Shown: in pieces, positions 1,234 to 27,035 of the stretch
Numbering within the stretch: position 1 is the first letter of the stretch
Layout: the number at the start of each line of letters is the position of its first letter
Assembly (NCBI GenBank): GCA_963755915.1
Contig: CAVWLP010000003.1
Location: 1,056,001 to 1,120,000 of the forward strand
Length of the DNA stretch: 64,000 nucleotides
Direction of reading: 5' to 3'
From: an uncultured Phycisphaerales bacterium
GTDB taxonomy: Bacteria; Planctomycetota; Phycisphaerae; Tepidisphaerales; Tepidisphaeraceae
Program-made: the position numbers and the translations under genes
Notes under the pieces: generated by a model
The model's database searches: none
Told to the model about the DNA's origin: nothing
Seen by the model: the letters and a program-made list of their open reading frames with translations, nothing else

Positions 1234-1247
1234 GGGTTGGGGGGGAA

Positions 1248-1278
1248 GAAAGCGCTCCCCTGCGGGTCGCGGCTAAAC
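1248..1278. repeat. REP-like intergenic repeat, family A copy 1
   Basis: GAAAGCGCTCCCCTGCGGGTCGCGGCTAAAC, 30/31 identical to 5979-6009; both lie between convergent genes. Confidence 0.8.
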
Positions 1279-1284
1279 AATTTG

Positions 1285-3429: not shown

Positions 3430-3452
3430 GATTGAACTATAGCGGTGGAGTG

Positions 3453-3572
3453 GGGAAATTCGAAATCCGAAACTCGAATGACGAATCAAATCCGAAACTC
3501 GAATGACGAAAAAATGGGGTATTTCGTCATTCTGGTTTGAATCATCATTCTGGTTTCTGGTTTCGGGTTTCC
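3453..3572. repeat. Imperfect inverted repeat built from ~7-bp units
   Basis: Left arm GAAATTCGAAATCCGAAACTCGAATGACGAATCAAATCCGAAACTCGAATGACGAAA mirrors right arm TTTCGTCATTCTGGTTTGAATCATCATTCTGGTTTCTGGTTTCGGGTTTCC. Confidence 0.7.
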
Positions 3573-3593
3573 GCGGCGGTAAGATTTGTACGA

Positions 3594-4783
3594 ATGCCTG
3601 GACCCCGCATTAATCTCAGCTCGACTCCTGAAAAAGCAGACCGCGGCGATCCGTGGGTGACGGGATTTCTTTTGCCGGTTTGTACGGTGCGGTGTGATTC
3701 TTCGACGCTGCGATCCATCGCGCGGGTGGGGGAGAGCGTGATTCGGGAGTGGGACGATCCGCTGGAGGCGCTGGATTGGATTTCGCGGACGTTTTGGCCG
3801 GGGGAGGGGCGGTGGATTGGATTTTTGGGGTTTGATCTGGGGGGGTTGTTTGAGGAGTTGCCGAGGCGGGCTGTGGATGATTTGGGGTTGCCGCTGTTTG
3901 TGTTTACGTATTGCCGGCCGGTGGGAGAGAGAGGGGCGGGCGTGGAGGAGGATTATGGGCGGGGGGAGGAGGCGCTGTCTTCGAATTTTTCGCGCGGGGC
4001 ATATGAGAAGGCGGTGGAGCGGGCGCTGCGGTATATCGGGGAGGGGGATATTTTTCAGGTGAATCTGGCGCAGCGGTTTTCGGCGGGGTTGCGGGCGCAT
4101 CCGGGGGAAATTTATCGGAGGCTGGTAGGGGAATCGCCTGCGGCATATGGGGCGTATCTGGGGTATGAGGATTTTGCGATTATCTCGAATTCGCCGGAGC
4201 TTTTTTTGCGGGTGACGCCGGACCGGAAGGTTGTGACGCGGCCGATCAAGGGGACGCGACCTGCAATGGATGGGATGGAGGGGGAGCTGCGCGAATCGGG
4301 GAAGGATCAGGCGGAATTGAACATGATCGTCGATCTGGAGAGGAATGATCTGGGGCGGGTATGTGAAGTGGGGAGCATTGAGGTTGTTGAGGCGCGGGCG
4401 ATTGAGAGGCATGGGAGCGTGTTTCATGGGGTGGCGACGGTGCGGGGGACTTTGCGGCCGGAGGTGGGGTTTGTCGATCTGCTGCGGGCGACGTTTCCGG
4501 GGGGAGCGTGACGGGGGCGCCGAAGATTCGGGCGATTGAGATTATCGATGAGCTGGAGCCGGTGCGGAGGGGGCCGTACTGCGGGGCGATTGGGTATTTG
4601 GATTCTAGCGGGTTGATTGAATTCAATGTCGCGATTCGAACGATGGTGGCGAAGGCGGGGAAAATTTATATTCCTGTGGGGGCGGGGATTGTCGCGGATT
4701 CTGATCCGGTGCGGGAATATGAGGAGACACTGGTGAAAGCGAAGGCTATGTTTGCGGCGGCCGGTGTCGAAATGGAAATGTGA
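3594..4783 (+). CDS. pabB: Aminodeoxychorismate synthase component I (chorismate-binding family), frameshift near 4505
   Basis: GDIFQVNL, SPELFL, PIKGTRP, KDQAELNMIVDLERNDLGRVC, (S)VTGAPKIRA, FNVAIRT. Confidence 0.85.
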
Positions 4784-4801
4784 CGCCTGTTTGGTTATCG
4801 A

Positions 4802-4850
4802 CCCCCCTCCTCTACCCTCCCCCGGAGTACCGGGGGCGGGGGTTAAGAGA
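4802..4850. repeat. Palindromic intergenic repeat, family B copy 1
   Basis: CCCTCCCCCGG-AGTA-CCGGGGGCGGG core; near-identical inverted copy at 52757-52804, partial copy at 9298-9330. Confidence 0.8.
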
Positions 4851-4868
4851 AATTCGAAGGGATGAAGG

Positions 4869-5957
4869 ATGATATTGAGCACAATTTTGAGCGCGCTGGA
4901 AGAAATTGCTCCGCTGGGGCTGGCGGAATCGTGGGATAATGTGGGGCTGCTGGTAGGGGATCCGAAGCAGGAGGTCAATCGGATTTTGTTGACGATTGAT
5001 TATTCGCCTGAAGTCGCGAAGGAGGCGGCTGAACAGCGGTGCGATCTGGTGATTGCGTATCATCCGCCGATTTTTAAGGCGTTGAAAAGGATCGTGGCGG
5101 GGAGTGGGATTTTTGAGGCGGTTCGAAAAGGCATCGCGATTTATTCGCCGCATACGGCGCTGGATGTGGCGGAGGGGGGAACGAATGACATGCTGGCGGA
5201 TGTGCTGGGGTTGACGGATCGGAAGCCGCTTAGGGCGGCGGAGGGGAAGGGGGCGGAATATAAGCTGGTGGTGTTTGTGCCGATCGAGGTGGTGGACAAG
5301 GTGAGCACGGCGATGTTTGAGGCGGGGGCGGGGCATATCGGGAATTATTCATCATGCAGTTTCAGGTCGACGGGATTGGGGACTTTTTTTGGGGAGAAGG
5401 GGTCGCATCCGACGCTTGGGCAGACGGGAAGGCTGGAACATGCGGATGAGATTCGGCTGGAGACGGTCGTTCCGGTTGAGAAGACGGAAGCGGTGGTGAG
5501 CGCGATGCGGGGGAGTCATCCGTATGAGGAGCCGGCGTTTGATTTGATCGTTTTGGCGCCGAAGATGGCGGATCGGGGGCAGGGGAAAATCGGGGGGATC
5601 CCCCCTACCGCTCGGCGGGAGCTGTTTGAGCGGATCAAGCGGGGGCTGGAGATTGAGCATCTGCTGATCGCGGGGCCGATGGAGGGAGAGGTTAAACGCG
5701 GGGCGGTGTGCGCGGGGTCGTGCGGGGAGTTTCTGGAGAATGCGATCGCGGGAGGGGCGGAGGTATATCTCACGGGAGAATTGCGGCATCACGATGCGGC
5801 GCGGGCGGCGGCAGCGGGGATGACGGTGGTGTGTACACTGCATTCGAATAGCGAGCGCGGGGTTTTGAAGAGGCTGAAGAAGCGGATAGAGGAGCGGGAG
5901 GGGATGGTGGAGATTCTGGTGAGTGAGAAGGATCGGGATCCGTTTTTGGTTCGGTGA
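4869..5957 (+). CDS. Nif3-like dinuclear metal centre protein (YqfO/YbgI type with PII-like insertion)
   Basis: AESWDNVGLLVG, YHPPIF, HTALD, GHIGNYSSCSF, HPYEEPAFD, TGELRHH. Confidence 0.92.
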   Translation: MILSTILSALEEIAPLGLAESWDNVGLLVGDPKQEVNRILLTIDYSPEVAKEAAEQRCDLVIAYHPPIFKALKRIVAGSGIFEAVRKGIAIYSPHTALDVAEGGTNDMLADVLGLTDRKPLRAAEGKGAEYKLVVFVPIEVVDKVSTAMFEAGAGHIGNYSSCSFRSTGLGTFFGEKGSHPTLGQTGRLEHADEIRLETVVPVEKTEAVVSAMRGSHPYEEPAFDLIVLAPKMADRGQGKIGGIPPTARRELFERIKRGLEIEHLLIAGPMEGEVKRGAVCAGSCGEFLENAIAGGAEVYLTGELRHHDAARAAAAGMTVVCTLHSNSERGVLKRLKKRIEEREGMVEILVSEKDRDPFLVR

Positions 5958-5978
5958 CTAAGGGAATTGCACCGCACG

Positions 5979-6009
5979 GAAAGCGCTCCCCTTCGGGTCG
6001 CGGCTAAAC
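5979..6009. repeat. REP-like intergenic repeat, family A copy 2
   Basis: GAAAGCGCTCCCCTTCGGGTCGCGGCTAAAC. Confidence 0.8.
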
Positions 6010-6034
6010 GGGGAGAGGGTGGATGGGGGATTTG

Positions 6035-6799
6035 CTATTGTCCGTAGGGGCCTTCGATGACGTTCCACTCTGGGGTGGTTGGGGGGAGGGTGAAATCCTT
6101 GTCGCTGACGCCGGTGTTGAGTTTCACATTGGCCAAATCCGTCGTGCGTGTCGTCGTTTGGTTGATGTCGAGGGTTTGAATTCGGCGCGGCATGGCCGAT
6201 TGGGTTTCGACCCAGACGTCGATGGTTTTGAAATCTTTGGCCATTTCCGTGCCGTCTTTGGGGGTGAGCTGGAGATGGACGGTGCCGGGGGGATCATCTG
6301 AGGTCGGGCCTACTCGGGCGACGGTGAAAATTTTCAGGACGTCTTCGCGTTTTTGGCCGAGGGGGAGGGGGAATGGGCCTTCGCCGAGCTTGAAGAGGTC
6401 GACGTTCTGTCCCGGCTTGAGGAGCTGGCCTTTGTTTTCGTGCTTGAGCTGGTAGTCGCGGTCGTCGAGGACGCCGTTGTCGAGGACGTATTCGTGATCC
6501 TGGGGTGTTATCAGGTTATCGACCTGTTTTTTGGTGAAGGCGACGCGGATGCGGACGTCGGTGGGGCTTTTTCGCTGGAGGACGACGGAGCCGATGCTCA
6601 TGTGGGTATCGCCGGTGTCGGTGGCGGTGTCGGTGAGGGTGACGTCGGCGGAGAAATCGCGCAGGCCGGTACCGCGGGCGTCGAGGGCGTCGAGGATCTG
6701 GTCGGTGGTGGAATTGTTTGAAAGCGTCGGCTGGGTGGTTGGGCCGGCGACGGTGGTGCAGGCGGCGGTCAGGACAAAGAGGAAAATCCATTTTCGCAT
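6035..6799 (-). CDS. Exported LolA-like protein
   Basis: Signal peptide MRKWIFLFVLTAAC; DFSADV, HLQLTPK, IDVWV..MPRRI, NVKLNTGVSDKDF resemble the LolA fold. Confidence 0.6.
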   Translation of the reverse strand: MRKWIFLFVLTAACTTVAGPTTQPTLSNNSTTDQILDALDARGTGLRDFSADVTLTDTATDTGDTHMSIGSVVLQRKSPTDVRIRVAFTKKQVDNLITPQDHEYVLDNGVLDDRDYQLKHENKGQLLKPGQNVDLFKLGEGPFPLPLGQKREDVLKIFTVARVGPTSDDPPGTVHLQLTPKDGTEMAKDFKTIDVWVETQSAMPRRIQTLDINQTTTRTTDLANVKLNTGVSDKDFTLPPTTPEWNVIEGPYGQ

Positions 6800-6804
6800 G
6801 AGGG

Positions 6805-7407
6805 CTATCTCCGAATACGTTTCAATAATTCGCACAGTTCGGGCAGATTGGCGACGGTCATCCAGGGCTCGGCGTCGAAATGGCGCGGCTTGTTGTGGCT
6901 GATCCAGACGGATCGGATCCCGGCGGCCGCGGCAGATTCGATGTCGTATTGGCCGTCGCCGACCATCCATGCATCAACGGATTCTATGCCTAATCGGCGG
7001 CAGGCGAGATGGAGGGGGGCGGGGCTGGGCTTGAAGAGACCGTCGTCGCGGGTGATCCGGACGGTGATTTGCAGGCTGTGACGGCGGATGACGGTGTCGG
7101 CACATTGGCGGCAGTTGCGGGTGACGAGGGCGACGGGGATTTTTCATGCGCGAGCCAGTTGAGGAGATCGCGGCAGCCGGGGTTGAGGGTCGATTTTTCG
7201 GCGGCGAGCTCTTCGTGGCGGAGGAGAACCCGTTCCGCCTGGCGCCGGCGGGCGTCGTCGAGAAGGGCGAGGGATTCGAGGATGGGGCCGTCGCCGATGC
7301 CCATGTCGGACTTGATGCGCGGGAAATCGAGCATGGGTTCGGTGAGGGTGCCGTCCATGTCGAAGAGGATGGCGCAGGGGGAAATCGATTTTGATGGGTT
7401 TGGTCAC
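6805..7407 (-). CDS. HAD-family hydrolase, frameshifted
   Basis: ILFDMDGTL motif I, KP motif, WMVGDGQYD motif IV across frames; TAG at 6805. Confidence 0.8.
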
Positions 7408-7435
7408 GTCGGCGCGCGAGTATAACATTGCGAGG

Positions 7436-8425
7436 ATGACCCAGAAACCGGATTGGCGAAAGCTGCACGGAGATCACTTTTCCGGGCAGCCGGTTCTCGT
7501 GACTGGGGGGGCGGGGTTTATTGGGTCGCATCTGGCGATTGCACTTAACGAACTCGGCGCGAAGGTGACGGTTCTGGATGATCTTTCGGGAGGCGGGGAT
7601 CCGAAGGCGCTTGCGGGGGGGATTGAGTTTGTGCAGGGGTCGATTTTGGATTTGGGGCTGCTCGAGAAGTGTGTGCGCGGGCGGGAAGCGGTGTTTCATC
7701 AGGCGGCACTGGGGTCGGTGCCGCAGAGTATTGTGGAGCCGGTGAGGTATCAGGAGGTTAATTCTACGGGGACTTTGAATGTGCTGGAGACGGCGAGGAA
7801 GTGCGGGGTGAGGCGGGTGATGTTTGCGGCGAGCAGCAGTGCCTATGGGGATGCGCCGGAGTTGCCGAAGGTGGAGACGATGGCGGCGCAGCCGCGGAGC
7901 CCGTATGCGGCGACGAAGGTGGCGGGCGAAGCGATGTTGGGGGCGTATGCGGCGGGGATGGGGGTGGATGCGGTGAGCTTGAGGTATTTCAATATTTTTG
8001 GGCCGCGGCAGTCGGCGACCAGCGCGTATGCGGCGGTGATCGCGGCGTTTGCCAAGGCGATGCTATCGGGCAGGAGGCCGACGATTTACGGGGACGGGGA
8101 GCAATCGCGGGATTTTACGTATGTTGATAACGTGGTTCATGCGAATCTCCTTGCGGCGCGGCGAAAGGAGCCATTGGGGGGAAAGATCGTCAATATCGCG
8201 TGTGGGGTGCGGATTTCGGTGAATGAACTGGCTTTTCGGATGGGCAAATGGCTTGGGCGGGAGGATTTAAAGCCGGATTATGCGGCGGAGCGCGCGGGGG
8301 ATGTGAAACATTCGCTGGCGGAATTAACGCGTGCGAAGAATTTGCTGGGGTATGAGCCGATAGTGGATTTTGGTGCGGGGCTCGACGAGACAATGACGTG
8401 GTATCGCGCTGCGCGAGAGAGTTGA
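7436..8425 (+). CDS. NAD-dependent nucleotide-sugar 4-epimerase (extended SDR, WbpP-like)
   Basis: GGAGFIGS, HQAALGSVP, YAATK, YFNIFGPRQ, GDGEQSRDF. Confidence 0.92.
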   Translation: MTQKPDWRKLHGDHFSGQPVLVTGGAGFIGSHLAIALNELGAKVTVLDDLSGGGDPKALAGGIEFVQGSILDLGLLEKCVRGREAVFHQAALGSVPQSIVEPVRYQEVNSTGTLNVLETARKCGVRRVMFAASSSAYGDAPELPKVETMAAQPRSPYAATKVAGEAMLGAYAAGMGVDAVSLRYFNIFGPRQSATSAYAAVIAAFAKAMLSGRRPTIYGDGEQSRDFTYVDNVVHANLLAARRKEPLGGKIVNIACGVRISVNELAFRMGKWLGREDLKPDYAAERAGDVKHSLAELTRAKNLLGYEPIVDFGAGLDETMTWYRAARES

Positions 8426-8514
8426 AAGTAGAAAGTAGAAAGTGGAGGAGAACTTGGTGGGAGGTTCCGGTTCTGGGGTTTAGGAGGTATGATGGGTGAG
8501 GAAGGAGCCTGAAG

Positions 8515-9283
8515 TTGGCAAAACGAACGCCGCTTGCGGAAAAATTGGACCGGATTCGCGATCGGATCGCGGAGGCGGCGGGGAAGACCAAGCGCGAGCC
8601 GGGGGAGATTACGCTGATCGCGGTGACGAAGACGGCCGCGCCGGAGCAGATTCGGGAAGTGCTGCAGCTTGGGCGTGGTCGATCTTGGCGAGAGCCGGGT
8701 GCAGGTGCTGACGCAGCGGGCGGCGCAGCTTAACGAATTTTATCAGAGGCGGGTGATTCACGGGGACGGGCAGCCGGCACAGAAAATTCGCTGGCATATG
8801 ATCGGGCATCTTCAGCGAAACAAGGTGAAGCGCTTTTGCCGCTGGTGCAGATGATTCACAGCATCGACAGCCTGCGGCTGGCGGAAGAGCTGGATATCCA
8901 GGCGGCGCGGCTGGCGGAAAAGACTTCCGGTACTTTTGCAGGTGAATACATCGGAGGAGTCGTCGAAGTTCGGGGTGGCGGTGGGAGCGGCGGTGCATCT
9001 GGCGGAGCAGATTGATTCGATGCCGAATTTGCAGATGCGCGGGCTGATGGCGATGGGGCCGCTGGAGGCGCCGGAGAAGAAGGTTCAACATGCGTTCACC
9101 AGGGCGAGAGAGATTTTTGAGGAAATGAAGTGGCACAAGATCGGCGGGGCGGGGCTGAAGCACCTGAGCATGGGAATGAGCCATGATTTTGAGCTGGCGA
9201 TCGCGGAAGGGTCGACGATGGTGAGGATTGGGACGGAGTTGTTCGGGGGGAATGTGGTGGAGGCGGATGAGATAGCGGAGTGA
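8515..9283 (+). CDS. yggS: PLP homeostasis protein YggS, frameshifted
   Basis: LIAVTK, GESRVQ, WHMIGHLQRNK, QVNTSEESSKFG, LSMGMSHDF, VRIGTELFG. Confidence 0.9.
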
Positions 9284-9297
9284 TATCGTAAGATGCG

Positions 9298-9330
9298 CCT
9301 CCCTCCCCTCGGAGTACCGGAGGCGGGGAA
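9298..9330. repeat. Palindromic repeat family B, partial copy
   Basis: CCTCCCTCCCCTCGGAGTACCGGAGGCGGGG. Confidence 0.6.
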
Positions 9331-9336
9331 AACAAA

Positions 9337-9591
9337 ATGGACTTCTTTGAATTTTTTCGGTGGGTGCTGGGAACGGTGGTGACGATTTATGCGACGGTGA
9401 CGACGGCGCAGTCGGTATATGGGTGGTGGATTTATTTCGGCGGAGAGGGAAATATATATCACTGGTGCGGCGGTATCTTATGCTGCAGGGGTTGCGGCTG
9501 CGGATCGAACGTTTGGGGGGGATGTGCGGTGTGCATGCTGCTGTGCGGTGGTTTGGGTTTTGTTGTTGCGGGCGCACCACCTGGTGAGTGA
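9337..9591 (+). CDS. Small hypothetical membrane protein, frameshifted
   Basis: MDFFEFFRWVLGTVVTIYATV hydrophobic start, codon style like neighbours. Confidence 0.55.
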   Translation: MDFFEFFRWVLGTVVTIYATVTTAQSVYGWWIYFGGEGNIYHWCGGILCCRGCGCGSNVWGGCAVCMLLCGGLGFVVAGAPPGE

Positions 9592-9615
9592 GGATCGATC
9601 CTTATAATCACGTGG

Positions 9616-10484
9616 ATGGACGAATCGAATCGACAACTCGATGAAGGCGTCGCCGGGGACGGGAGATCGTGGTGACCGGCGCGGCAACGCCGGTCGCGGG
9701 GCAGTCGCCGGACCGGCAGCTTTCGGAGCTGCCGAAGGATGAGCTGGCGAATCTGGCGGAGACGCTGGGGCTGGATGCGACGCGATATAAGACGCAGCAA
9801 TTGCTGGTGAGCGGCAGTGCATGAGCGGCGGCAATTGATCGCGGGGATGGATCGAGCAGTCGATGCTGGATGTGGTGCGATGGGGACGTCGGCCGGTGAC
9901 GACAGATGCGCGGCAAGGAGCAGATTGCGCAGGAGATCGCGCGGATTCGGTCGATGCGGTTCGCGGGATTGTACGCGGCGGGGGCTGGTGGTGCTGGCGC
10001 GGCTGCGGGGGGTGGATGCGTCGCGAGGCGGATTCGGTGCCTGCGGTGGTTCGAAGGCTGAGGAAGCAGGAGGGATTTTTCAGCCGGCTGAATCGAAGGC
10101 GGCGGGCGGTGCTGGGGGGGATGGTGGCGACGATCGTGGGGGAGAATGTTTCCGAATTCGGATTACAAGTTTCTGCCGGACCGGCATGACGGGGGGCGCG
10201 AAGGCGGCGTCGATCAAGGAGGAGATCGAAGAGTCGGGGCTGTTTGGGGGGATCAGCAACAGGCTGAAGAAGAGCGCGGATGTTTTTCTCAACCAGAAGC
10301 TGGATGAGATCGAAGGCGCGGATCGACCGGAAGCTCGATGAGATCGACAGGCGGCTGGCGGAGTGGAGGGATAAGGAGATCGCGAATCGGATCAGGATTC
10401 TGAAGATCACGCTTTGGGCGAGCGTGATCGTGGGGATCATTTCGCTGATTTATGCGTATGTGAAGGTTTATTTGTGCGCAGTAA
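9616..10484 (+). CDS. Hypothetical protein with C-terminal coiled coil and TM anchor, multiple frameshifts, end approximate
   Basis: Fragments join into one protein ending KLDEIEARIDRKLDEIDRRLAEWRDKEIANRIRILKITLWASVIVGIISLIYAYV. Confidence 0.6.
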
Positions 10485-10489
10485 AAGAA

Positions 10490-10519
10490 AAAGCCCCAGC
10501 ATGGAAATGCTGGGGCTTT
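10490..10519. terminator. Bidirectional intrinsic terminator
   Basis: AAAGCCCCAGCAT-GGAA-ATGCTGGGGCTTT between convergent genes. Confidence 0.85.
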
Positions 10520-10546
10520 CATAAAGGGAAATTTACAACTTCCCGA

Positions 10547-12728
<2,182 letters not shown>

Positions 12729-13000
12729 GTACCATCTCCAATTGTAGATACGGTTGGTTCGACCGTGCGAGCGGGCCGAATGATTGCAAAACGATCAAAA
12801 AATGTCCAGCACGAAAGTAAAAAATGTGGGTTGAAAAATGGCATGTTCACGGAAAGCAGCATGATCTCGAAAGGAGGAAAAATTTGTTTGCTTTTTGCAA
12901 ACGCCGACGCCGGATGTCGAATGGTTGATGTTTTCGCGTAGGTCTTTAGCTCACAAGAAATTGCGCACCCAAACGACCACTACGCCGATACCCAGCAAAG

Positions 13001-13029
13001 AAAAACGCCGCCCTCATGAGGGCGGCGTT
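13001..13029 (-). terminator. Intrinsic terminator of the GSII gene
   Basis: AACGCCGCCCTC-AT-GAGGGCGGCGTT with T run on the minus strand. Confidence 0.8.
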
Positions 13030-13063
13030 GGATTGACTGCTTGAACGGATCGATCGACGGCAA

Positions 13064-14125
13064 TCAAACGGCAGCCAAAACCGGGTTGCTGTCCAGCGAT
13101 TTTTTGGATGGAAGCGGTACGGTTTGGATGGTCTGGAGAATCCGGCTGGCGATCTTGTAGGGATCGCCCTGCGAGTTGGGACGACGGTCTTCCAAATAGC
13201 CTTTGTAGCCGTTCTTGGGCATGCTGTTGGGAACGCGGATGGAAGCACCGCGATCGGCAACCCCGTAGTTGAACTTATCGATGGACTGAGTCTCGTGGAG
13301 GCCCGTGAGGCGCAAGTGATTGTCGGGTCCATAGACAGCGATGTGCTCCGCCTTGTATTTGTCGAAGGCGGCCATGAGCGCCTCGAAGTATTCTTTGCCG
13401 CCGACTTCGCGAAGGTATTTGGTGGAGAAGTTGGAGTGCATGCCCGAGCCATTCCAGTCGCTCTTGCCGAGCGGCTTGCAATGGTAATTCACGTCCACAC
13501 CATATCTTTCGCAAAGCCGCTGGAGAAGATAGCGGGCAACCCACATTTCGTCGGCGGCTTTTTTGGAGCCTTTGCCGAAGATCTGGAATTCCCACTGACC
13601 TTTGGCCACTTCGGAGTTGATGCCTTCGTGGTTGATGCCGGCGTCGAGGCAAAGATCGAGATGTTTGTTGACGATCTCGCGGGCGATGGGGCCCATAAGG
13701 CCGTAACCGACGCCGCAGTAATATCTTCCCTGGCCTTCCTTCGGGAAGCCTTCCGAGGGAAAGCCGAGCGGCAGGCCGTCTTTATAGAGGAAGTACTCCT
13801 GCTCAAAGCCGAACCAGGTCTCCGGGTCATCCAGAATGGTGGCGCGGGCGTTGGTGGAATGGGGCGTGAGATCGTGATGGAGAACCTCGCAGAGAACGAT
13901 CACGCCGTTTTTGACGGTGCTGTCGAGATACCTTGCCACGGGTTTGAGAACACAGTCGGAGTTGTGGCCCTCCGCCTGCCGGGTCGAACTGCCGTCAAAA
14001 CCCCAGTTTGGGAGCTGGTCAAGTGACGGGAATGACTCAAAATCTTTGACAAGGGTTTTACCGCGGATGTTGGGGACGGGCTCATAGCCGTCCAGCCAGA
14101 TATACTCGAGTTTATACTTTGCCAT
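13064..14125 (-). CDS. glnII: Glutamine synthetase type II
   Basis: 353 aa; EYIWLDG, WGFDGSST, WFGFEQEY, GQWEFQI, DWNGSGMH, RLTGLHET, DRGASIRVP, GYLEDRRP. Confidence 0.95.
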   Translation of the reverse strand: MAKYKLEYIWLDGYEPVPNIRGKTLVKDFESFPSLDQLPNWGFDGSSTRQAEGHNSDCVLKPVARYLDSTVKNGVIVLCEVLHHDLTPHSTNARATILDDPETWFGFEQEYFLYKDGLPLGFPSEGFPKEGQGRYYCGVGYGLMGPIAREIVNKHLDLCLDAGINHEGINSEVAKGQWEFQIFGKGSKKAADEMWVARYLLQRLCERYGVDVNYHCKPLGKSDWNGSGMHSNFSTKYLREVGGKEYFEALMAAFDKYKAEHIAVYGPDNHLRLTGLHETQSIDKFNYGVADRGASIRVPNSMPKNGYKGYLEDRRPNSQGDPYKIASRILQTIQTVPLPSKKSLDSNPVLAAV

Positions 14126-14197
14126 GTGCGTCTACATCTCCATTTTTCTGTGCGGTAATTGCGGATCACAAAAAATGATCCGTGGCCCATGGGAGTT

Positions 14198-14226
14198 ATG
14201 TTGCCGGATATTTGGGCAGGAGTCAA
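14198..14226 (-). promoter_or_regulatory. Possible sigma70 promoter of glnII
   Basis: TTGACT-17 bp-CAACAT on minus strand; spacer carries TGCC-N9-GGCA palindrome. Confidence 0.35.
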
Positions 14227-14429
14227 AAAAATCTCAGGCTCTCCACAGGCGCCATTTTTCTGACTGAAACCGTCCTGATCATCCGAAATGAGGTAAATAT
14301 CGGACCACCAACATGCGATATGATTAGAAGATGGGCAACTGACTTTAGGCATGATGCTGTTGCCTATAAACTAGGCGACAAGAGGCGGCTTTTTGTGATT
14401 AGACTGCGGCATGTGAGAGTTGGTGCGAA

Positions 14430-16695
14430 GTGAAACCGAAAACAGATTTCATTATTGAGGTACGCCGTAATGCCAAAAGCGCGCCGGATGGCGCTGTCGA
14501 GAAGTTTCTGAGCCGAGTTGGGCCAGACTATCTGGCAGCGTTCGATGCGCGGCATCGCGAGCCAGTTGCTCGCGCTGATGAAGCTCAGCGATGAGAAACC
14601 CGTGCAGCTTATATTTGGCCGCCGCGACGATGGTTCGATCGAATGCTCGGTTCTGGCGTTCGATCATCTGTTTGAGTTCTCAATTATCTGCGGCGTGATG
14701 GCCGGCACGGGCTTCAGCATCACGGACAGCAATGCCTTTACGCTGCCGGCAGTGAGGTCGCCTGGCCTCAAAAGATCGGTGAACAGGCGGCAACTGATCG
14801 AGCGGCCGCGCGATCCGATGAGCGATCCGGTCATTCTTGATCATTTCGTCGGAAAACTGATCGGACCGCTGACGGATTTCCGCGCGTGGGTTAGTGTCTT
14901 CGCGCCGGCGATCGAGGAAACGATTGCGCTGCTGAATCAAGGACGGGAAGAATCAACCAATCGCGCCAAGCGCATCGTGAACGAGCGCGTGACGCAGTGG
15001 CTGAAATCACGGCGGGGTGATGATGAAACGCATTCGCCAATCGTGCGGCTGGAGGCGGATGTCGAGCAATCGCCCGGCGCCACGCGGCTGCGCCTGCAGG
15101 CGCCCGACACACCGGCGTTTTTGTATGCCCTCAGCACGGCACTTTCGCTGCACGGATTGCAGATCGAAAAGACGCGGGCGCGGACGGTGGAGGAGAAGGC
15201 GATCAATGAAATCGACGTGGTTGATGGAGGGGGGAAGCCGCTGGGCGAGGCCGACCAAGTGCGGCAGATTCAGCGGTCGGTGCTGCTGACGCTTCAGTTT
15301 TGTTATTTTTTGGATCGTGCACCGGATCCGTTTTCGGCGTTGCAGAGGTTTGAGGAATTGGCGCGGCAGGTTGTGCAAATACCAGACGCCGGCGGCTGGC
15401 TGGAGCTGCTGGCAAATCCGCTGAGCTTGGCGGACCTGGCGAGGATTTTGGGGGCGAGCGATTTTTTGTGGGAGGATTTCATCCGGTGGAATGCGGATGC
15501 GCTCCTGCCGCTGCTTCAGCGGCGATTGAGGGGGGAGCAGATTTGCCCGCTGATGGGAACGCTGCCGCGGCGGTTGGAAGATTGTCTGGCAGGGGCGAAG
15601 AATTTTGATGAGCAGAGGAAAAGGCTCAATACGTTCAAGGACCATGAACTTTTCCTGATCGATCTGGATCACATTCTGAGCGACCAAAGCCCGGATGTGG
15701 CGTTTCAAATCCTTTCGCAGCGGCTGGTTTTGCTGGCGGAAAACCTTGTCGGCGTGGCGTCGAAGCTGGTGTATGGGGAACTGGTGAGGCTTTATGGCAG
15801 GCCGCGCGATGAGAAGAGACGCGATACCGATTATGCGATTTTTGGACTGGGGAAATTGGGGGGCGTGGCGCTGGGGTATGCTTCGGATATCGAGCTGCTG
15901 TTTTTATACGGGGAAGATGGGGACACCGCCGGCGGGAGCCGGGGGTCGCTGAAGAATGGGGAATTCTTTGCCATCCTGGCGAAGGAAACGTGCGACTACA
16001 TTCAGGCGAAGCGCGAGGGGATATTCGAGGTCGACCTGCGTTTGCGGCCGTATGGAAAGAACGGTCCGCTGGCAAGCAGCGGGGGCGATTTCGCGCAATA
16101 TTATGGTGGAAAGGGGGACGCGCATCCGTTTGAACGATTGGCGCTGGGGCGGCTGCGATGGATCGCGGGGGATCCGGGGTTGGGATTTGAGATTGAGCGG
16201 GTGCGCGATGAGATTCTGTATGAGGGACGGCCGCTGGATTTGGGGGCGATCCGGGAAATTTCGGAGAAGATGCGGCGGCAGCATTGTCCGCCGGGGCAAA
16301 AGAATTCCAAGCACAGCGATGGGGCGCTGGCGGATTTGGAGGAGATGGTGCAGTTGCTCCAGGTGGCCAATGCGCGGGCGGCGCCGCAATTACGGACGCC
16401 TAGGCTGATCGACGCGATGGATGCGCTGCACCGGGCGGGGATTTTTTCGGCGCGGGAATTTGAGCGGGTGATGTGTGCTTACCAATTTTTCCGGCGGTTG
16501 ATCAATGCGCAGCGGATGCTGCGGGGGTCGGCGAAGGATTTGGTTCTGCCGGCGGAGGGGGCGGATGAGCTGGTGCACCTGGGGCGGAGAATGCAGTTTA
16601 GATCGGACGATCCAGGGGGGGAGTTGCTGCGGGAATTCGGCGAGCATACCGAGGCAGTCCGGAGGCTGATGAAGAAGCGGTTTGGGGGGAAATGA
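14430..16695 (+). CDS. glnE: GlnE-like glutamine synthetase adenylyltransferase with ACT domains and one NTase domain; start inferred across a frameshift near 14550
   Basis: GLGKLGGVALGYASDIELLF, VDLRLRPYG, HPFERLAL; ACT-like segments AFDHLFEFSIICG and APDTPAFLYALST. Confidence 0.8.
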
Positions 16696-16721
16696 AAAAC
16701 CGCCGGTGGGGACACCGGCGG
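16696..16721. terminator. Terminator between convergent glnE and glnA
   Basis: AAAA-CCGCCGGTG-GGGA-CACCGGCGG. Confidence 0.75.
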
Positions 16722-16750
16722 CATTAGCGAATGAATATTTGCTGCTCGAA

Positions 16751-18184
<1,434 letters not shown>

Positions 18185-18493
18185 TCGTGACCTACTTTCC
18201 GCGATGGATGCGATTTGGTTGATCGTGCATCTAAGCGAAAATTCGATGCAGAGTCAATTTGATCTTGCGTTAAAAACAGGTTTGCGCAAAGCAATCAAAT
18301 CTGCCGGTGATCGCCGGCGAAGACACTCACCCCAGCACTGTTCCGGCGCCGGGATACGGGGAGAGGGCGGAAAGAGGGCACAGACGATTGCCGCACCCGT
18401 TGGCCCGCGATGGTTTTGACGGTGGGAATCGAGGCCGCTAGCATACGCCGCTCACCAAACGGTCCCGCAGTCAAAACCTGAGGAGAAATACTA

Positions 18494-19906
18494 ATGTCGC
18501 CTTCCGATGTTCTGAAGCTCTGCAAAGAAAACAAGGTGGAGTTCGTCGATCTGCGTTTCATGGATTTTCCGGGACTGTGGCAACATACGACGTGTCCAGT
18601 CAACGAGTTAACGCTCGAAAACTTCGGGCATGGATTTGGATTTGACGGCAGCAGTATCCGCGGCTGGCAGGCCATCAACGAATCCGACATGCTGCTGGTG
18701 CCTGTTGCCAGTACGGCAAAAATCGACCCGTTTCTGACGCACCCCACCTTGTCGATCATCTGTGACGTGCGCGATCCGATCACCAAGAAAGAGTACTCGC
18801 GGGACCCGCGCTCGATCGCCCGGAAGACGGGTGAGTATCTGAAGAAAACGAAAATCGCCGACACGGCTTATTTCGGGCCGGAGCTGGAATTCTTCGTGTT
18901 CGATACTGCGTTCTACGATCAGGGGATCAATTTCGGAAAATACTTCGTGGGAAGCCGGGAGGGGATCTGGACGCGCGGCGAGGAGGACCCGACCAATCTC
19001 GGGTACAAGATGCGCTTGAAGGAGGGTTATTTCCCGACGCCGCCGATGGACACCATGCAGAACGTCCGCAGCGAGATGGTGGCGACGCTGATCGACCTGG
19101 GAATCCCCGTAGAGGCGCATCATCACGAGGTTGCCACGGGCGGTCAGTGCGAAATCGACATGCGCTACCAGGATCTGGTGACGATGTCGGACAACGTGAT
19201 GATGTACAAATATGTCTGCAAGAACGTGGCGGCGAGGCATGGGAAAGTGGTGACGTTCATGCCAAAGCCGTTGTTTCAGGACAATGGCTCGGGGATGCAC
19301 GTCCATTTCAGCCTGTGGAAGGGGAACAAGCCGCTGTTCGCGGGGAATAAATATGCGGGGCTGAGCACGATGGGGTTGCACGCCATCGGGGGAATTCTGA
19401 AGCACGCGAAAGCTTTGTGTGCGCTTTGCAATCCTACGACCAACAGCTACAAGCGGCTGGTGCCGGGATATGAAGCGCCGGTGAACCTGGTTTACAGCAG
19501 CCGGAACCGGTCGGCGGCGATTCGGATTCCGATGTACAGCGAAAATCCCAAGACCAAGCGGATCGAATTCCGCTGCCCGGACAGTTCGTGCAATCCGTAT
19601 CTGGCATTCAGCGCGATAACAATGGCGGCGATCGATGGGATTGAGAATGAACTCGATCCGGGTGAGCCGCTGGATAAGAATATGTATCACCTGACTGAGG
19701 AGGAGTACGAAAAGATTTCCTCGGCACCGGGATCGCTGGAGGAGGCGCTGCTGGCGTTAGAGGAGGATCATGAGTTTCTGCTGAAAGGGGATGTTTTTAC
19801 CGCAGACGTTGTGCATTACTGGGTGAAATATAAGCGGGAGAATGAGGTGGATGCGATTCGGCAGAGGCCGCATCCGTATGAGTTTTGCATGTATTTCGAT
19901 ATATAA
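18494..19906 (+). CDS. glnA: Glutamine synthetase type I-beta, copy 2
   Basis: Same motifs as copy 1; adenylylation loop NMYHL; SD GAGGAG upstream. Confidence 0.97.
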   Translation: MSPSDVLKLCKENKVEFVDLRFMDFPGLWQHTTCPVNELTLENFGHGFGFDGSSIRGWQAINESDMLLVPVASTAKIDPFLTHPTLSIICDVRDPITKKEYSRDPRSIARKTGEYLKKTKIADTAYFGPELEFFVFDTAFYDQGINFGKYFVGSREGIWTRGEEDPTNLGYKMRLKEGYFPTPPMDTMQNVRSEMVATLIDLGIPVEAHHHEVATGGQCEIDMRYQDLVTMSDNVMMYKYVCKNVAARHGKVVTFMPKPLFQDNGSGMHVHFSLWKGNKPLFAGNKYAGLSTMGLHAIGGILKHAKALCALCNPTTNSYKRLVPGYEAPVNLVYSSRNRSAAIRIPMYSENPKTKRIEFRCPDSSCNPYLAFSAITMAAIDGIENELDPGEPLDKNMYHLTEEEYEKISSAPGSLEEALLALEEDHEFLLKGDVFTADVVHYWVKYKRENEVDAIRQRPHPYEFCMYFDI

Positions 19907-21660: not shown

Positions 21661-24600
21661 GTGCGGATACTGAACTGCGAGGTGAATCCCCCCTCAAGGC
21701 GGGCACGCAGAATTTTGGGAATCGCGGTCTGCGCCGCGGTGGGCGGGTGGGCGATGGTGGGCCGGGCTGACACGACGGCCACGTGGGTTTCGGAGACGAG
21801 CGGGGATTGGGCCAATGCAGCGCTCTGGTCGACGTCGCCGAATTATCCGGATAATGGTTCACCGGCGGGAGTGAACTACCAGGCACTCCTCAATGCGACC
21901 GGAGGCACCAGCTACACCACAACCATTGATTCAGACGTCACTGTAGATGGAATCACAATCGATTCGGCCGATGCGACTGTGGACCAAACATCAGGCACGG
22001 TGCAGGCCGGGACGATTGCGGTAAGCAATGGGAACTATCAGATGGATGGGGGGACGCTGGCCAATACATCGCTCAACATCTCCGGAGGGTCGATCGCCAT
22101 TTCCAATGGAACGCTTAACAATGTTGTAGTATCGAGTGGCACGCTTTCGGTAGGCGATCTTAGCGCCAGAACCCTGCAACCTTGACCGTTGAGAATGGCT
22201 TGTTCACGACGGGCAGCGCCGCGCTCATGCTGGCCCCGCCACCCGGTGGCCTGACGATGGTTTTCGATGGCCCCAGCCAGACGGAAAATTCGCTGAACCT
22301 GGCGGGACTAACAAATTGGGGCAACGGCACTACGATCCAAATCAGCGGGGCAAGTTCTTCGGGGCCGACCACGCTGACGCTGGGCGAACAAGCGTCGCTG
22401 AGCGGTTGGCTGACGATCACAGACGGAGCGCAGCCGGGCGATACCCTCATCAACAACGGGACCATCGACAGCAACTACTCTTTGGAAATCGACGTGACCA
22501 ATTTTACGAACAACGGCCTTGCCGAAGCCAACGGCGGAGTGCTTTACATAAAATCCCCGCACTGGACCAACACAGGGCAGTTTTCCGCATCAAACGGCGG
22601 CGCTTTGGAGCTCGGCGGCGCGTTTTCCTCCGCACAGTTGGCGAATATCTCGCTTGATGCAACCAGCTCGCTCGAAATCTCCGGTACGATGGATAACACC
22701 AACAGCACCCTCGCTATGCCCAGCGCCGGATCGTTTGTCCTGCAAGGGGGAACTATCATTGGCGGCACTCTCGATGCAACCGCCAGCGCTCCCACTGTTG
22801 CCGCGGGCATACTCGATAACGTCCACATCGCCAACGGCGACCTGAATGTGATCAATCATCTATATGACTATCGGGGGTCCGTTTCCGAAACGATCGTTCA
22901 GGGCAATTTGACGCTCGATTTCGGCTATCAGGTCAATATGACCTCGGATGATTCCTACGGCGCGGTCAATGTGATTGAATTCGACGGCGCCACCCGCACC
23001 GTCGACAACCTCACGATCCAGGCGACGCCGAGCATGGGTAACAGCAATCCGGCCCTCGGCGAAATTGCCGCCGGTGGTCCGGACACGACCGGTCCGGCTA
23101 CGCTCACCCTCGGAACCAATTTCCTGATGCACGGACTTTTTGGCGTCATTGACGGCACAACCCTGGGATGCACGGTGATAAACAATGGCACTATTTCTTC
23201 GGACGATAACACGACGCCTTACTTCAATACCGGAGTATCGTCACTCATCAGCGTTGACAATTTTACCAACGACGCCACTGCACAGGCGATCAATGGGGCG
23301 ACCCTTACCATCGATTCGCCGAGCTGGACTAACGCCGGAACCCTCAAAGCCGCCAACGGGGGACTGCTGATATTAAGCGGGGTATTCACAAATACCGGGG
23401 CGATCTCGGCCGACTCGACCAGCTCTGTGCGAATCAACGGAACCTTCGATAACGCCAGTAGTACGTTTGTCGTTCCAGGTGTCGGGAACTATAGCTTGAA
23501 CGGCGGAACTGTCATTGGCGGAACGATCGACGAAAGCTCGGGCAACCTGTTGAAAGTAGAAGGATTCTCAGTCTTAAACGGGGTTGACGTTTCAAACGGT
23601 GATTTGGACGTTAATGGAACCCTCACCGTCGAAAATTACATGGCCCTGGACGCGGGACGCACGCTCGACCTGGAAGCGGGCGCAAGCTTTTCAATTTCGG
23701 GCTTGAATGAATACTGGACTTCCACCGTCGCGCTCGATGTGCCGGCTTTTACGGTTGACGGTTTTAACATCAATGGTAAATCGAACTTTGAAGAGCAGGT
23801 CAATACCCTCTACGTCGGCGGCCCCGATTCCGGTCCGACACCAACCCTGACGATCGGCTCCAGCGCGGTGGTCGTCGGAGCTATCGCGTTAAATAATGGG
23901 TTGGTCCCGGACGACAACGACCCCTTCCAGCCCTACGGAACCCCTCTGCCGGCGACGGTCATTAACAACGGCACGATGAACGCCGATCTGAACTTTGTCG
24001 GCATGACGATTAGCGTTTCGAATTTCTTTAACAATAGCACCCTAAAGGCAACCAACGGCGCAAACCTGCTGATCGCTTCGCCGAATTTCGTTAATGACGG
24101 CACGGCGCAGGGAAACGCCGGCATCCTCACAATCAATTCCCAAAACCTGACCAACGCCGGAACCATTGCCGCATTGAACGGGGGTACGGTTGTCATCAAC
24201 AGCAATCTAACAATCGCCGCCCTCGGCAATTGGACGGTCGATGCCACTTCGACTTTCCAATTCGGGGGAACAATTAATAATGCCAATTCGACTCTGGTGC
24301 TTCCGGCCACGGGAACAATCGAGCTGACGGGAGCCATCGTCGGCGGCACCGTCGACGAGACGTCGGGAAACACACTCTACACCGGCGGCACCGTCACTTT
24401 GGATGGTGTCCACATCGCAGGCGGCAATCTCAACGAAGGAGCAACCCCTCTCGTTTCCTCTTCCCTTATCCACCGTTCAGCCTCACCCGATGGGGGGATC
24501 ATAACGATCGGCGAGTCGTACTCTGATAATACCATTAACGTCGACAACGGGTTGATCGTCGACCCTGGGTTTCAGTTGATTTTGGCACAGAACTCGAACT

Positions 24601-25351
24601 CTCCAAGCCTTGTCTTTGACGGGCCAAGCCAAACTCTGAATCAAATAACCATTCTGGGAACCGACGTAGTTCAAAATTACGACGCCTTCAACTTCGTGAA
24701 CGGGGTTCAGATTGGAGGAGCAAATACCACTTCTTCACCGACCCTTACACTGGGACCCAATTCAGACATGCACGGCGCTAGACATCGAAAACGGCTCGAA
24801 CGCGACCCAGGAATTCAGCTCCGAACTGATCAACAACGGCACCATCAGCGCCGATCTCAGCGGCGCCACCCTGGAAATTGGCGTGACCTATTTCCTGAAC
24901 AATGGCACGCTCAAAGCGATCAACGGTGCAACGCTGCAAATCACCTCCCCGAATTTCGATAACGAGGGCACGTTGTCCATCGATGGAGGCACGCTTTCAC
25001 TCGCACAGGATAAAACAGTTTTCAACCCCGGCACACCGGGAACATTCGACGTGGGCAACGGAACGCTCTCGGGGTCAGGAACCATCGACGGCAACGTGGT
25101 CCTCCAATCCGATCCATCAACCCTCGCGTTCGATTTGCGATCCGAAGGCGACTTCGACAGCCTTGCGATCGACGGAAATCTCACCCTTGCCGGAAACCTG
25201 GAAATTTCGCTCGCCAATGGTTTTGATCCACCAGGCAGCGATGTTTTCACGGTCCTCACGGTCAACAGCCAGGACACCATGTCTGGCAGTTTTGATGACG
25301 TGGCCGATGGCGGCAGGCTTTTGACGGCTGACGGACTTGGCTCTTTCCTTG
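21661..25351 (+). pseudogene. Large exported beta-repeat PEP-CTERM protein, 5' part, interrupted by IS21 (also indels near 22180 and 24780)
   Basis: Signal peptide, GDWANAALWS, G/N/T-rich repeats (INNGTI, NAGTL); frame continues after the IS. Confidence 0.8.
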
Positions 25352-25467
25352 TGTCATGGGCGCGCAAAACCGGCCAATTGAGGGCGCGCCAAAACCGGCC
25401 ATTTTGAGGCACAGGAGATTGGGTTATCGACCTTGGCTTTCGGCGGTTGCCGCAAGCCAATGGTGGG

Positions 25468-27035
25468 ATGGCCAATCAACTCAAGATGGCGGAAGTACAA
25501 GCAATTTTGGCACTTGCGCAGCGGCTGGTCCAATCGGAACATCGCCCGCCAACTCGGCGTTCACCGGGAGACCGTTGGACGCCACATCCGGTTGTCGGGC
25601 GGCGATCCTGCGGCGCCCGGATCGGATTCAAAACCGGCCAGCGCCCCATCGGGTCGGTCAGTACGGCATCGCCCTGGCGTGAGGTCATTGTTCAGAAGTT
25701 GGAAGCCGGGCTGACGGCCCAGCGGATTTATCAAGACATCTCCAGCGATCACGGCTATGCCGGCAGCTATTACAGCGTGCGCCGGTTCATCAAGAAGCTC
25801 TCGGCTGCCGCGCCGGCGCCCTTTCGCCGGATGGAATGCGAGCCGGGAGCCGAGGCGCAGGTGGACTTCGGCCGGGGTGCGCCCCTGGTCGGTCCTGACG
25901 GCAAACGCAAAGCAACCTGGGTCTTCCGCATTGTGCTGAGCCACAGCCGCAAGGGGTACGCCGAGGCGGTGGAGCGGCAGACGACCGATGATTTTCTGCG
26001 TTGTCTGGAAAATGCCTTTACGCACTTCGGCGGGATGCCGTCAGCGCTGGTGATCGACAATCTTCGCGCGGCGGTGACGCGGGCGGACTGGTTCGAGGCG
26101 GAGTTGTGTCCCAAGGTCCGGTCGTTCGCCGAACATTATGGAATCGCCATTCTGCCCACCAAGCCGTACACGCCGCGGCACAAGGGGAAGATCGAGCGGG
26201 GCATCGGCTATGTGAAGAGCAATGCTCTCAAAGGCCGGCAATTCGCCTCGCTCTCGGATCAGAACGCGCATCTGCTGACGTGGGAGAAGAGCGTGGCCGA
26301 CACGCGCATCCACGGCACGACGCGGCGGCAGGTGAAGGAAGTCTTCGAGCAGGTAGAGAAGCCGGCACTGTTGGCTCTGCCGCCGGTGCGATTCGATCTT
26401 TTCACCGAGGCGTTGCGCAGTGTTCACCGCGACGGGCACGTGGAGATCAAGGGGGCGTACTATTCGGTCCCGCCGGAGTTTTTGGGCCAGCGGGTCTGGG
26501 CGCGGTGGGACGGCGCACGGTCCGGCTGTTCGATCAGAAGATGCGTGCGATCGCTCTGCACGCGCAGCGTCCGCCGGGCAGGTTCTCGACGCAAGACGCC
26601 CATATCCTGCCGGAGAAGATCAGCGGCATCGAGCGTGGAACGACCTGGCTTCTCCAGCGGATCGAATGCATCGGGCCGCACGCCACGCAGTGGGCGCAGT
26701 CAATGCTTCAGCATCGCGGCATCGAAGGCGTGCGCGTGTTGATGGGGCTGCTGTCGCTGGCCAATCAGCAGCCGCGACCGGCCGTGGAACGAGCCTGCGA
26801 GATTGCTCTGGGGCATGGCGCGTATCACCTGCGCTCCCTGCGGCAGCTCATCGAACACCAAAACGGCGCGCCGGTTCAACAACACTTCGAGTTTGTTCAG
26901 GAACATCCAATCATCCGCGGACTGGCCGATTACGGACAGTTCGTACGCGACGCAATCACCCAAGCGGAGGCTTTGCCTGCCGCACAACCTTTACAGGCCT
27001 GCCCTGAGCAGAGCCGAAGGGAGTCCACCCCATGA
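25468..27035 (+). CDS. istA: IS21 transposase IstA, apparent frameshifts
   Basis: N-terminal HTH (GWSNRNIARQLGVHRETV), PGAEAQVDFG, IDNLRAAV, PRHKGKIERGIGYVK, YSVP. Confidence 0.92.

Follow-up and report, generated by a model that had tools for sequence, protein, structure and literature searches.

The adenylylation of glutamine synthetase (GS) is a textbook covalent-modification cascade, whose details come almost exclusively from Proteobacteria and Actinobacteria. How might this control be organised where a GlnE-type protein carries its own sensor and a single catalytic module? The question is raised by a gene at positions 14430 to 16695 (+) of a 64,000-nucleotide stretch of DNA, referred to at its full length as the window, from an uncultured soil planctomycete, a Phycisphaerales bacterium of the Tepidisphaeraceae (assembly GCA_963755915.1, contig CAVWLP010000003.1, positions 1,056,001 to 1,120,000). 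We favour, with some reserve, the reading that this gene encodes a stand-alone, sensor-fused GS adenylyltransferase, which would be gated by an amino acid, independent of GlnD and directed at the neighbouring type I glutamine synthetases (GSI).

The gene belongs to a lineage, termed here ACT-GlnE, in which a GlnD-type sensor is coupled straight to GlnE. Its short form can be viewed as a natural experiment, in which the transferase-like half stands alone, with a removase and GlnD not found. Three questions become testable with it: at which site and in what manner GlnE-type enzymes perceive glutamine, whether one module can run the AMP cycle both ways, and how GlnD-less bacteria set their GS activity.

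Domain anatomy and reading frame

The gene and the parts of its product, with the catalytic module of the ACT-GlnE type denoted NT*, are located in the window as follows.

14430..16695 (+): short ACT-GlnE gene (ACT-ACT-NT*), 755 codons if the repeat at 14547-14550 is (GC)3
14547..14550 (+): frame break, (GC)2 in the assembly and (GC)3 in one short-read contig
14602..14937 (+): predicted ACT fold 1, interrupted at about aa 68-95 (716-aa numbering) by a loop modelled with low confidence, from GlnD-model match, AlphaFold2 (AF2) model and structure match
15052..15312 (+): predicted ACT fold 2, from GlnD-model match, AF2 model and structure match; PF01842 matches here in relatives
15430..16197 (+): GlnE nucleotidyltransferase domain PF03710 of the NT* type, from Pfam and Foldseek
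15844..15903 (+): catalytic motifs GLGKLGG and SDIELLF; every module of the NT* clade has DxE
16030..16050 (+): VDLRLRP motif with the third acidic residue
16297..16677 (+): GlnD_UR_UTase helical domain PF08335, which closes the module, from Pfam

In the 725-aa open reading frame (ORF) of the assembly, PF03710 matches once (aa 305-560, 133 bits, cut-off 24) and is followed by PF08335 (aa 594-720, 41.8 bits, cut-off 21). These are the only Pfam matches at E<=0.01, with no HD domain among them. The core GlnE motifs GxGKLGG, SDx[DE] and VDxRLRP are all found (GLGKLGG at 15844-15864, SDIE at 15883-15894, VDLRLRP at 16030-16050), the second acidic residue being E, not D. A preliminary description of the locus had read a single nucleotidyltransferase module with DIE in place of DLD, and this is borne out. 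It had also proposed two GlnD-like ACT segments upstream, which are recovered by profile alignment, predicted fold and structural matches, with the Pfam ACT model silent. Residues 20-253 align to positions 647-843 of the 850-position GlnD model TIGR01693 (E 4.5e-6), and five further GlnD models of NCBIfam match the N-terminal 250 aa as well; in relatives, the ACT region reaches E 5e-15 on TIGR01693 positions 612-842. The whole protein scores 24.5 bits on this model (cut-off 519.4), and the ACT region alone aligns. The Pfam ACT model PF01842 matches the second ACT of two relatives (P0037, 27.8 bits; P0059, 30.6 bits; cut-off 27) and stays below the cut-off in three others (P0112, 24.8 bits; P0075; P0045).

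The AF2 model of the whole protein, based on 68 aligned sequences, has a pLDDT (predicted local distance difference test) of 89.9 and a predicted TM-score (pTM) of 0.88. In a Foldseek search it matches the E. coli GlnE structures 1v4a (E 3.1e-18, TM-score 0.81) and 3k7d (E 5.5e-17, TM-score 0.73), the TM-scores being normalised to the target. A separate model of the N-terminal 290 aa (pLDDT 90.4) contains two beta-alpha-beta-beta-alpha units and was compared by VIA-align with 48,161 PDB representatives, and the ACT call rests on this comparison. The top match, which covers both folds, is 3l76_B, where the tandem ACT region belongs to the aspartate kinase of Synechocystis (Z 11.6, root-mean-square deviation (rmsd) 3.2, 145 residues aligned, model residues 19-256), and the regulatory domain of threonine deaminase (9d2s) is matched with Z 8.3. 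ACT fold 1 aligns to 9c7o_B over 79 of 79 residues (Z 7.4, rmsd 2.0, model residues 19-127), and the single-ACT matches 1zpv, 1u8s, 6lxg and 2nyi have Z 4.7-4.9, that of 2nyi_B (Z 4.7) covering model residues 177-253. Foldseek returned only low-TM global matches for the N-terminal model (7jsr, E 3.8e-4; 3l76, probability 0.97). Judged by sequence and model together, the window protein is a single GlnE module behind a GlnD-like ACT pair.

The extent of the gene depends on one dinucleotide repeat. As assembled, the longest ORF in the interval runs from 14518 to 16695 (+; 725 aa, TTG start), and the public gene call is a 716-aa product beginning with ATG at 14545. The preliminary description had placed the start at 14430, which is a GTG and from which the frame begins VKPKTDFIIEV...FLSRVGPDYLAAFDA; 39 codons from this position align to the N-termini of 750-770-aa relatives, after which the frame is lost at 14547-14550. 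Reads were checked with Logan contigs of four soil-metagenome runs, aligned to window positions 12300-15200. The frameshift site is covered by one read contig only (run X2, 228 nt, 14496-14721, depth 2.3), which has GC inserted behind 14546 and is otherwise identical; with three GC units, a single 755-codon frame results. The length of about 750 aa given in the preliminary description therefore holds after this 2-nt correction only, the assembled frame giving 725 aa. The break is probably an assembly indel, with a single low-depth contig as support, because the read contig restores the frame, the alignment to the N-termini of relatives continues through the break, and other genes of the window are frame-broken too.

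Such breaks are found at several places in the window. The neighbouring GSIII-type GS gene (-) has two compensating frame shifts near 12400-12540; within 12350-12640 its frame is left after '...KTIHEG' and regained about 50 codons later, probably through assembly errors, and no read contig of the four runs covers these breaks. The ORF of a chorismate-binding enzyme at 3507-4508 (+) ends at profile position 180 of 257, an Ala_racemase_N ORF at 8936-9283 (+) covers profile positions 119-219 only, and one base at window position 12690 is absent from a read contig. The short ORFs and the difference at 12690 suggest that the assembly is prone to indels.

The ACT-GlnE lineage and its short form

A word-indexed search retrieved relatives of 750-770 aa labelled Tepidisphaeraceae (60-75% identity) and relatives of about 1260 aa whose records are labelled Deltaproteobacteria, Chitinivibrionales and Kiritimatiellae (42-48% identity along the whole query). 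Some proteins of about 1230 aa match the query over its full length with their C-terminal half. An exhaustive search of 50%-identity representatives gave 7618 matches at E<=1e-3 and 1751 at E<=1e-30. Local hidden Markov models (HMMs), one for the ACT pair and one for the module, served to type the domain layouts of 268 proteins and three references, 271 in total:

ACT2-NT-NT: 114
ACT2-NT: 105
NT-ACT2-NT: 26
split-hit variants of the three ACT2 layouts: 21
NT only, with no ACT2 match: 3
NT-NT (E. coli GlnE): 1
ACT2 alone (E. coli GlnD): 1

The ACT pair invariably stands directly in front of NT*. After merging of split hits, a partner module follows NT* in 126 proteins, precedes it in 30 and is not found in 107. 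NT* modules score 440-690 bits with the module HMM, partner modules 100-160 bits and the E. coli halves 172 bits each. The active-site motif separates them as well, with DxE in all 263 NT* modules and DxD in all 150 partner modules and both E. coli halves. In a tree of 86 modules, the 42 NT* modules split from the 44 others with branch support 100/100. Clusters of the lineage are numerous in Planctomycetota, Spirochaetota, Thermodesulfobacteriota, the wider Planctomycetes-Verrucomicrobia-Chlamydiae (PVC) group and other phyla, and their source annotations read 'glutamate-ammonia-ligase adenylyltransferase' or 'hypothetical protein'. A full-text literature search, from which subscription journals were absent, returned no paper on an ACT-bearing GlnE or on planctomycete GlnE. 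ACT-GlnE constitutes a large GlnE lineage for which we found no description.

The assignment of NT* to one of the two canonical halves was approached through the same 86-module tree, which was built with IQ-TREE under the posterior mean site frequency (PMSF) model, the ACT-family rows being drawn at random from the representatives. The canonical proteins were nine GlnE genes (9 of 30 matches, from chromosomes filed in a plasmid collection) and E. coli GlnE. The NT* modules of the two long layouts were labelled A1 and B2, and their partners A2 (after NT*) and B1 (before NT*). A branch with support 99/92 separates A2, B1, all ten removase modules of the canonical proteins and the two transferase modules of actinobacterial origin from NT* and the eight proteobacterial transferase modules. 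Discriminator HMMs, built from 8 proteobacterial removase and 8 proteobacterial adenylyltransferase modules, agree with this division: the transferase HMM outscores the removase HMM for 247 of the 263 NT* modules, the window module among them (162.1 against 119.7 bits), the removase HMM prevails for 143 of the 150 partner modules, and 4 of 4 held-out actinobacterial modules were correctly classed. The equivalog models NF008292 and NF010706 each align the window module to their C-terminal halves, and the NT-ACT2-NT layout has the module order of canonical GlnE. With moderate confidence, NT* may be regarded as an adenylyltransferase-type module and the short form as a protein that has lost the removase-type one.

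Within the removase-side group of the tree, the removase and transferase modules of the two actinobacterial GlnE proteins (L099, L100) pair with each other (99/97), which could reflect gene conversion, a separate duplication or an artefact.

The short form recurs as a conserved state. The genome of the window (6.63 Mb in 3 contigs, 81% complete, 8% contamination) gave one PF03710 match and, within this 81%, neither a second module or second PF08335 nor GlnD; the preliminary description had named the second GlnE half and GlnD among the genes to look for, and neither turned up. Exactly one module is present in each of 14 further short-form genomes (15 of 15 with the genome of the window). Within the family, the domain occurs in 8 of 101 genomes, each time as a single module, one of them split by a frameshift; locus L011 is a short form whose single module is split by frameshifts. 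Among the 17 listed genomes of the same class only two have a match, both single-module, and in a wider sample of Planctomycetota the domain was found in 113 of 301 genomes, mostly as a pair of modules in one frame of 970-1280 aa. Some Planctomycetota gave a third PF03710 match; these matches were considered as additional short forms and rejected, being weak (20-32 bits) and lying in GlnD-sized frames.

In a tree of the ACT-NT* region with 79 rows, the 14 complete short forms, all from Planctomycetota, lie on one side of a branch with a support of 97 in the Shimodaira-Hasegawa-like approximate likelihood ratio test (SH-aLRT). Ten fully short forms make up a clade (SH-aLRT 100), and the four basal members are tailed. 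C-terminal tails of at least 40 aa were found in 16 of 107 short-form sequences, and 12 of the 16 correspond to the opening 100-177 positions of the stretch behind NT* in the long forms; they look like a relic of a lost module. In the 86-module tree, with its wider sample, the short state requires at least four changes.

These data bear on the simplest rival explanation, namely that the gene is a decaying or misassembled, functionless fragment of a two-module GlnE, which we regard as hardly credible. Such an origin would agree with the assembly frameshift at 14547-14550, the existence of long relatives and the relic retained in 12 of the 16 tails. Against it, one read contig restores the frame and similar breaks affect other genes of the window, the form is conserved on many contigs, with 60-75% identity and every motif preserved, and the ten fully short forms make up one clade. 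With the next GS gene beginning 59 bp past the stop codon, there is no room downstream for a hidden module. The preliminary description had allowed that relatives might expose the gene as a truncated piece of a two-module GlnE. In evolutionary terms, comparison of the relatives indicates that it is indeed a truncated derivative, yet a conserved form and not a fragment, as the single module in 14 of 14 further short-form genomes attests.

Glutamine synthetase neighbours, PII and the proposed mechanism

The gene is embedded among GS genes:

10550..12979 (-): GSIII-type glutamine synthetase, frame-broken in the assembly, a conserved upstream neighbour in Tepidisphaeraceae
13067..14125 (-): GlnII-type glutamine synthetase, divergent upstream neighbour (NF041605, 356 bits, below the cut-off of 500)
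16754..18184 (-): GSI_a, GSI-beta glutamine synthetase, convergent, the likely substrate (Tyr405 codon 16970-16972)
18494..19906 (+): GSI_b, second GSI-beta glutamine synthetase (Tyr398 codon 19685-19687)

The four GS paralogues, of three types, lie within 9.4 kb (10550-19906) around the regulator gene. The adjacent GSI pair of the preliminary description is upheld, in that both proteins keep the tyrosine aligned to E. coli Tyr398, the site of adenylylation, and the synteny recurs in relatives. The order GSIII, ACT-GlnE, GSI_a is found in five Tepidisphaeraceae loci (L010-L013, L016), and a locus cut at its 5' end (L015) has ACT-GlnE, GSI_a and GSI_b. Orthologues of GSI_a adjoin ACT-GlnE genes in other phyla, and 29 of 80 related loci have a GSI gene no more than 700 bp away, with the following distribution:

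Thermodesulfobacteriota: 9 of 10 loci
Myxococcota-labelled: 6 of 8 loci
Planctomycetota: 9 of 18 loci
Spirochaetota: 1 of 30 loci

Scanning the window for the sigma-54 consensus yielded 24 matches, where 27.7 would be expected, and the intergenic regions on either side of the gene have none.

The two PII genes of the genome are located on another contig than the ACT-GlnE gene, and both products have a tyrosine in a T-loop-like stretch, GH(T/N)ERYRG, putatively the counterpart of E. coli PII Tyr51. A PII gene is present at 12 of the 80 related loci and lies directly upstream at eight spirochaete loci (L071, L075, L079, L083, L086-L089), on the same strand as an ACT-ACT-NT*-partner gene; most of these eight have no GS gene within 10 kb. 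In three other loci (L020, L022, L025), a GlnD-sized ORF, PII, GSI and a long ACT-GlnE are clustered on one strand, so that those genomes combine an ACT-GlnE with the classical relay. GlnD above the cut-off was found in 0 of the 14 further short-form genomes versus 7 of 15 long-form genomes. The preliminary description had inferred a possibly PII-independent enzyme; with two PII genes in the genome and PII genes beside relatives, the data do not support this part of it.

A rearranged GlnD-like enzyme that modifies PII or another protein in place of GS is an unlikely identity for the gene product. It is suggested by the ACT pair and PF08335, both in common with GlnD, by a genome with no GlnD found and two tyrosine-bearing PII proteins, and by the PII genes adjoining related long forms at the 12 loci. 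The catalytic domain, however, is of the GlnE type, with 133 bits on PF03710 as opposed to 24.5 bits on the GlnD model and its cut-off of 519, and the gene stands among GS genes with both PII genes on another contig. The presence of true GlnD in 7 of 15 long-form genomes also means that the lineage is no simple replacement of GlnD.

Elsewhere in the window, the + strand GC skew of positions 1-12000 (+0.29 to +0.41) is far above that of the rest and spans genes of both strands (UvrD on the minus strand, NIF3 and an epimerase on the plus strand). At 25408-27919 (+) lies an IS21-type pair, in which an IstB-like ATPase comes after an rve / Mu-transposase C-terminal protein, and a 932-aa ORF at 22164-24959 (+) has no Pfam match at E<=0.001.

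Under the favoured reading of a sensor-fused adenylyltransferase, the GlnD-type ACT pair would bind an amino-acid signal and gate the single NT* module, which it would activate, with its DxE active site. The module would then move AMP from ATP onto the conserved loop tyrosine of the adjacent GSI enzymes, and their activity would be lowered by AMPylation when nitrogen is plentiful. The ACT domains of GlnD are its glutamine sensor. Because the ACT pair is homologous to this sensor, glutamine is the likely signal, and the pair probably senses an amino acid, putatively glutamine. The GlnD to PII-UMP relay of enterobacteria would be unable to operate here, as no GlnD was found in the 81% complete genome, and the enzyme would itself sense the nitrogen signal. 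The adenylyl-removing module of the two-module relatives would have been lost, and AMP might later be removed through dilution or turnover, by the same active site or by an unrelated enzyme. The data themselves show the domain anatomy, a genome in which neither a second module nor GlnD was found, the synteny with GS genes, the target tyrosine and the position of the protein in its family, while what the pair binds, which GS is modified, which way the reaction runs and how AMP is removed are inferred. In Herbaspirillum seropedicae, a laboratory truncation of GlnE that lacks the removase half (aa 438-928) is a glutamine-responsive and GlnB-independent adenylyltransferase (preprint 10.64898/2026.09.02.748916). 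Because this truncation is active, a lone transferase half is workable. The possibly monofunctional GS-modifying enzyme of the preliminary description is sustained as regards the one module, adenylyltransferase-like by tree and HMM, and needs the qualification that the gene belongs to a lineage whose long members have two.

Several points weigh against this reading. With the genome 81% complete, a separate removase gene could sit in unassembled DNA, and the intact frame was seen in just one low-depth contig. The Pfam ACT model PF01842 does not match the window protein even at E<=10. As to the module type, the two actinobacterial transferase modules fall among the removase modules in the tree, NF010707 aligns the window module to its N-terminal half, and neither pairwise scores (1v4a, 104 bits; 3k7d, 97.8 bits) nor fold scores separate the two halves. 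Approximately unbiased (AU) tests, run with iqtree2 --fast under LG+F+G4, a simpler model than the PMSF one of the tree, do not reject NT*, A2 and B1 as one clade (p 0.069), the partners with the proteobacterial transferase modules (p 0.161) or NT* with the proteobacterial removase modules (p 0.154). Finally, if the transferase were unaccompanied by a removase, turnover would be the only way to undo GS inactivation, which would be an odd design.

Some of these points could be turned into the opposite assignment, an enzyme that only removes adenylyl groups, which we consider very unlikely. It would fit the slightly higher scores of 1v4a over 3k7d, the N-terminal alignment on NF010707 and the N-terminal position of the module relative to those relatives in which the partner follows NT*. 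Both the tree and the discriminator HMMs nevertheless place NT* on the transferase side, and no transferase was found in the 81% complete genome, so that there would be nothing to remove.

Alternatively, the single site might work as a bifunctional switch, NT* adding AMP in an ATP-dependent reaction and removing it by phosphorolysis or pyrophosphorolysis, with ACT occupancy setting the direction; a second module would then be superfluous. We hold this to be a doubtful but genuine possibility. The purpose of GS adenylylation is reversible control, yet a second module was found in 0 of 15 short-form genomes; the canonical halves are homologous and have the same core motifs, which puts the chemistry within reach of one site; and DxE, invariant in 263 of 263 modules, is a changed active site, which in this case would be an adaptation permitting both directions. 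The long relatives, on the other hand, retain a removase-like partner, which argues that NT* alone does not cover removal there, and we know of no precedent for such a switch, which also counts against it. Equally tentative is the proposal that, in GlnD-less Planctomycetota, a single ACT-gated site for AMPylation and deAMPylation replaces the cascade of GlnD, PII-UMP and two-module GlnE; if it were true, the enzyme would constitute a one-protein nitrogen switch.

Comparison with known systems

The structures closest to the N-terminal region, the tandem ACT regions of aspartate kinase (3l76, Z 11.6) and threonine deaminase (9d2s, Z 8.3), share only 10-11% identity with it and have other catalytic partners, so that no common ligand can be inferred from them. 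GlnD has PF08335 in common with the window protein and its own ACT1-ACT2 pair at the C-terminus, in the order nucleotidyltransferase, HD, ACT-ACT, whereas in the window protein the pair is N-terminal, the HD domain is missing and the nucleotidyltransferase is of the GlnE type.

Canonical bifunctional GlnE (E. coli, 946 aa; 1v4a, 3k7d) shares the catalytic fold, the motifs and the order of PF03710 and PF08335 with the window protein, which has 23% identity and TM-scores of 0.73-0.81 to both of its halves, and its type of substrate, a GSI with the loop tyrosine, adjoins the window gene. It differs in having two modules with DxD, where the window protein has one with DxE, and in being without the ACT pair that the window protein has at its N-terminus. 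The distance is also seen with the equivalog models of the bifunctional enzyme, on which the window protein scores 160.4 (NF008292), 131.9 (NF010706) and 126.2 bits (NF010707), with cut-offs of 487, 724 and 625.

Another close system is the long ACT-GlnE, in both its arrangements (ACT-ACT-NT*-partner, about 1260 aa; partner-ACT-ACT-NT*, about 1230 aa). It has the same ACT pair and DxE-type NT*, with 42-48% identity over the whole query, and often adjoins GSI; it differs in retaining the removase-like DxD partner, in the GlnD present in 7 of 15 genomes and in the PII gene directly upstream of some members. The transferase half alone is reportedly active in C-terminal constructs of E. coli GlnE. 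The H. seropedicae truncation (aa 438-928), like these constructs, is artificial and carries no ACT pair, whereas the gene of the window would be a natural counterpart with an added sensor.

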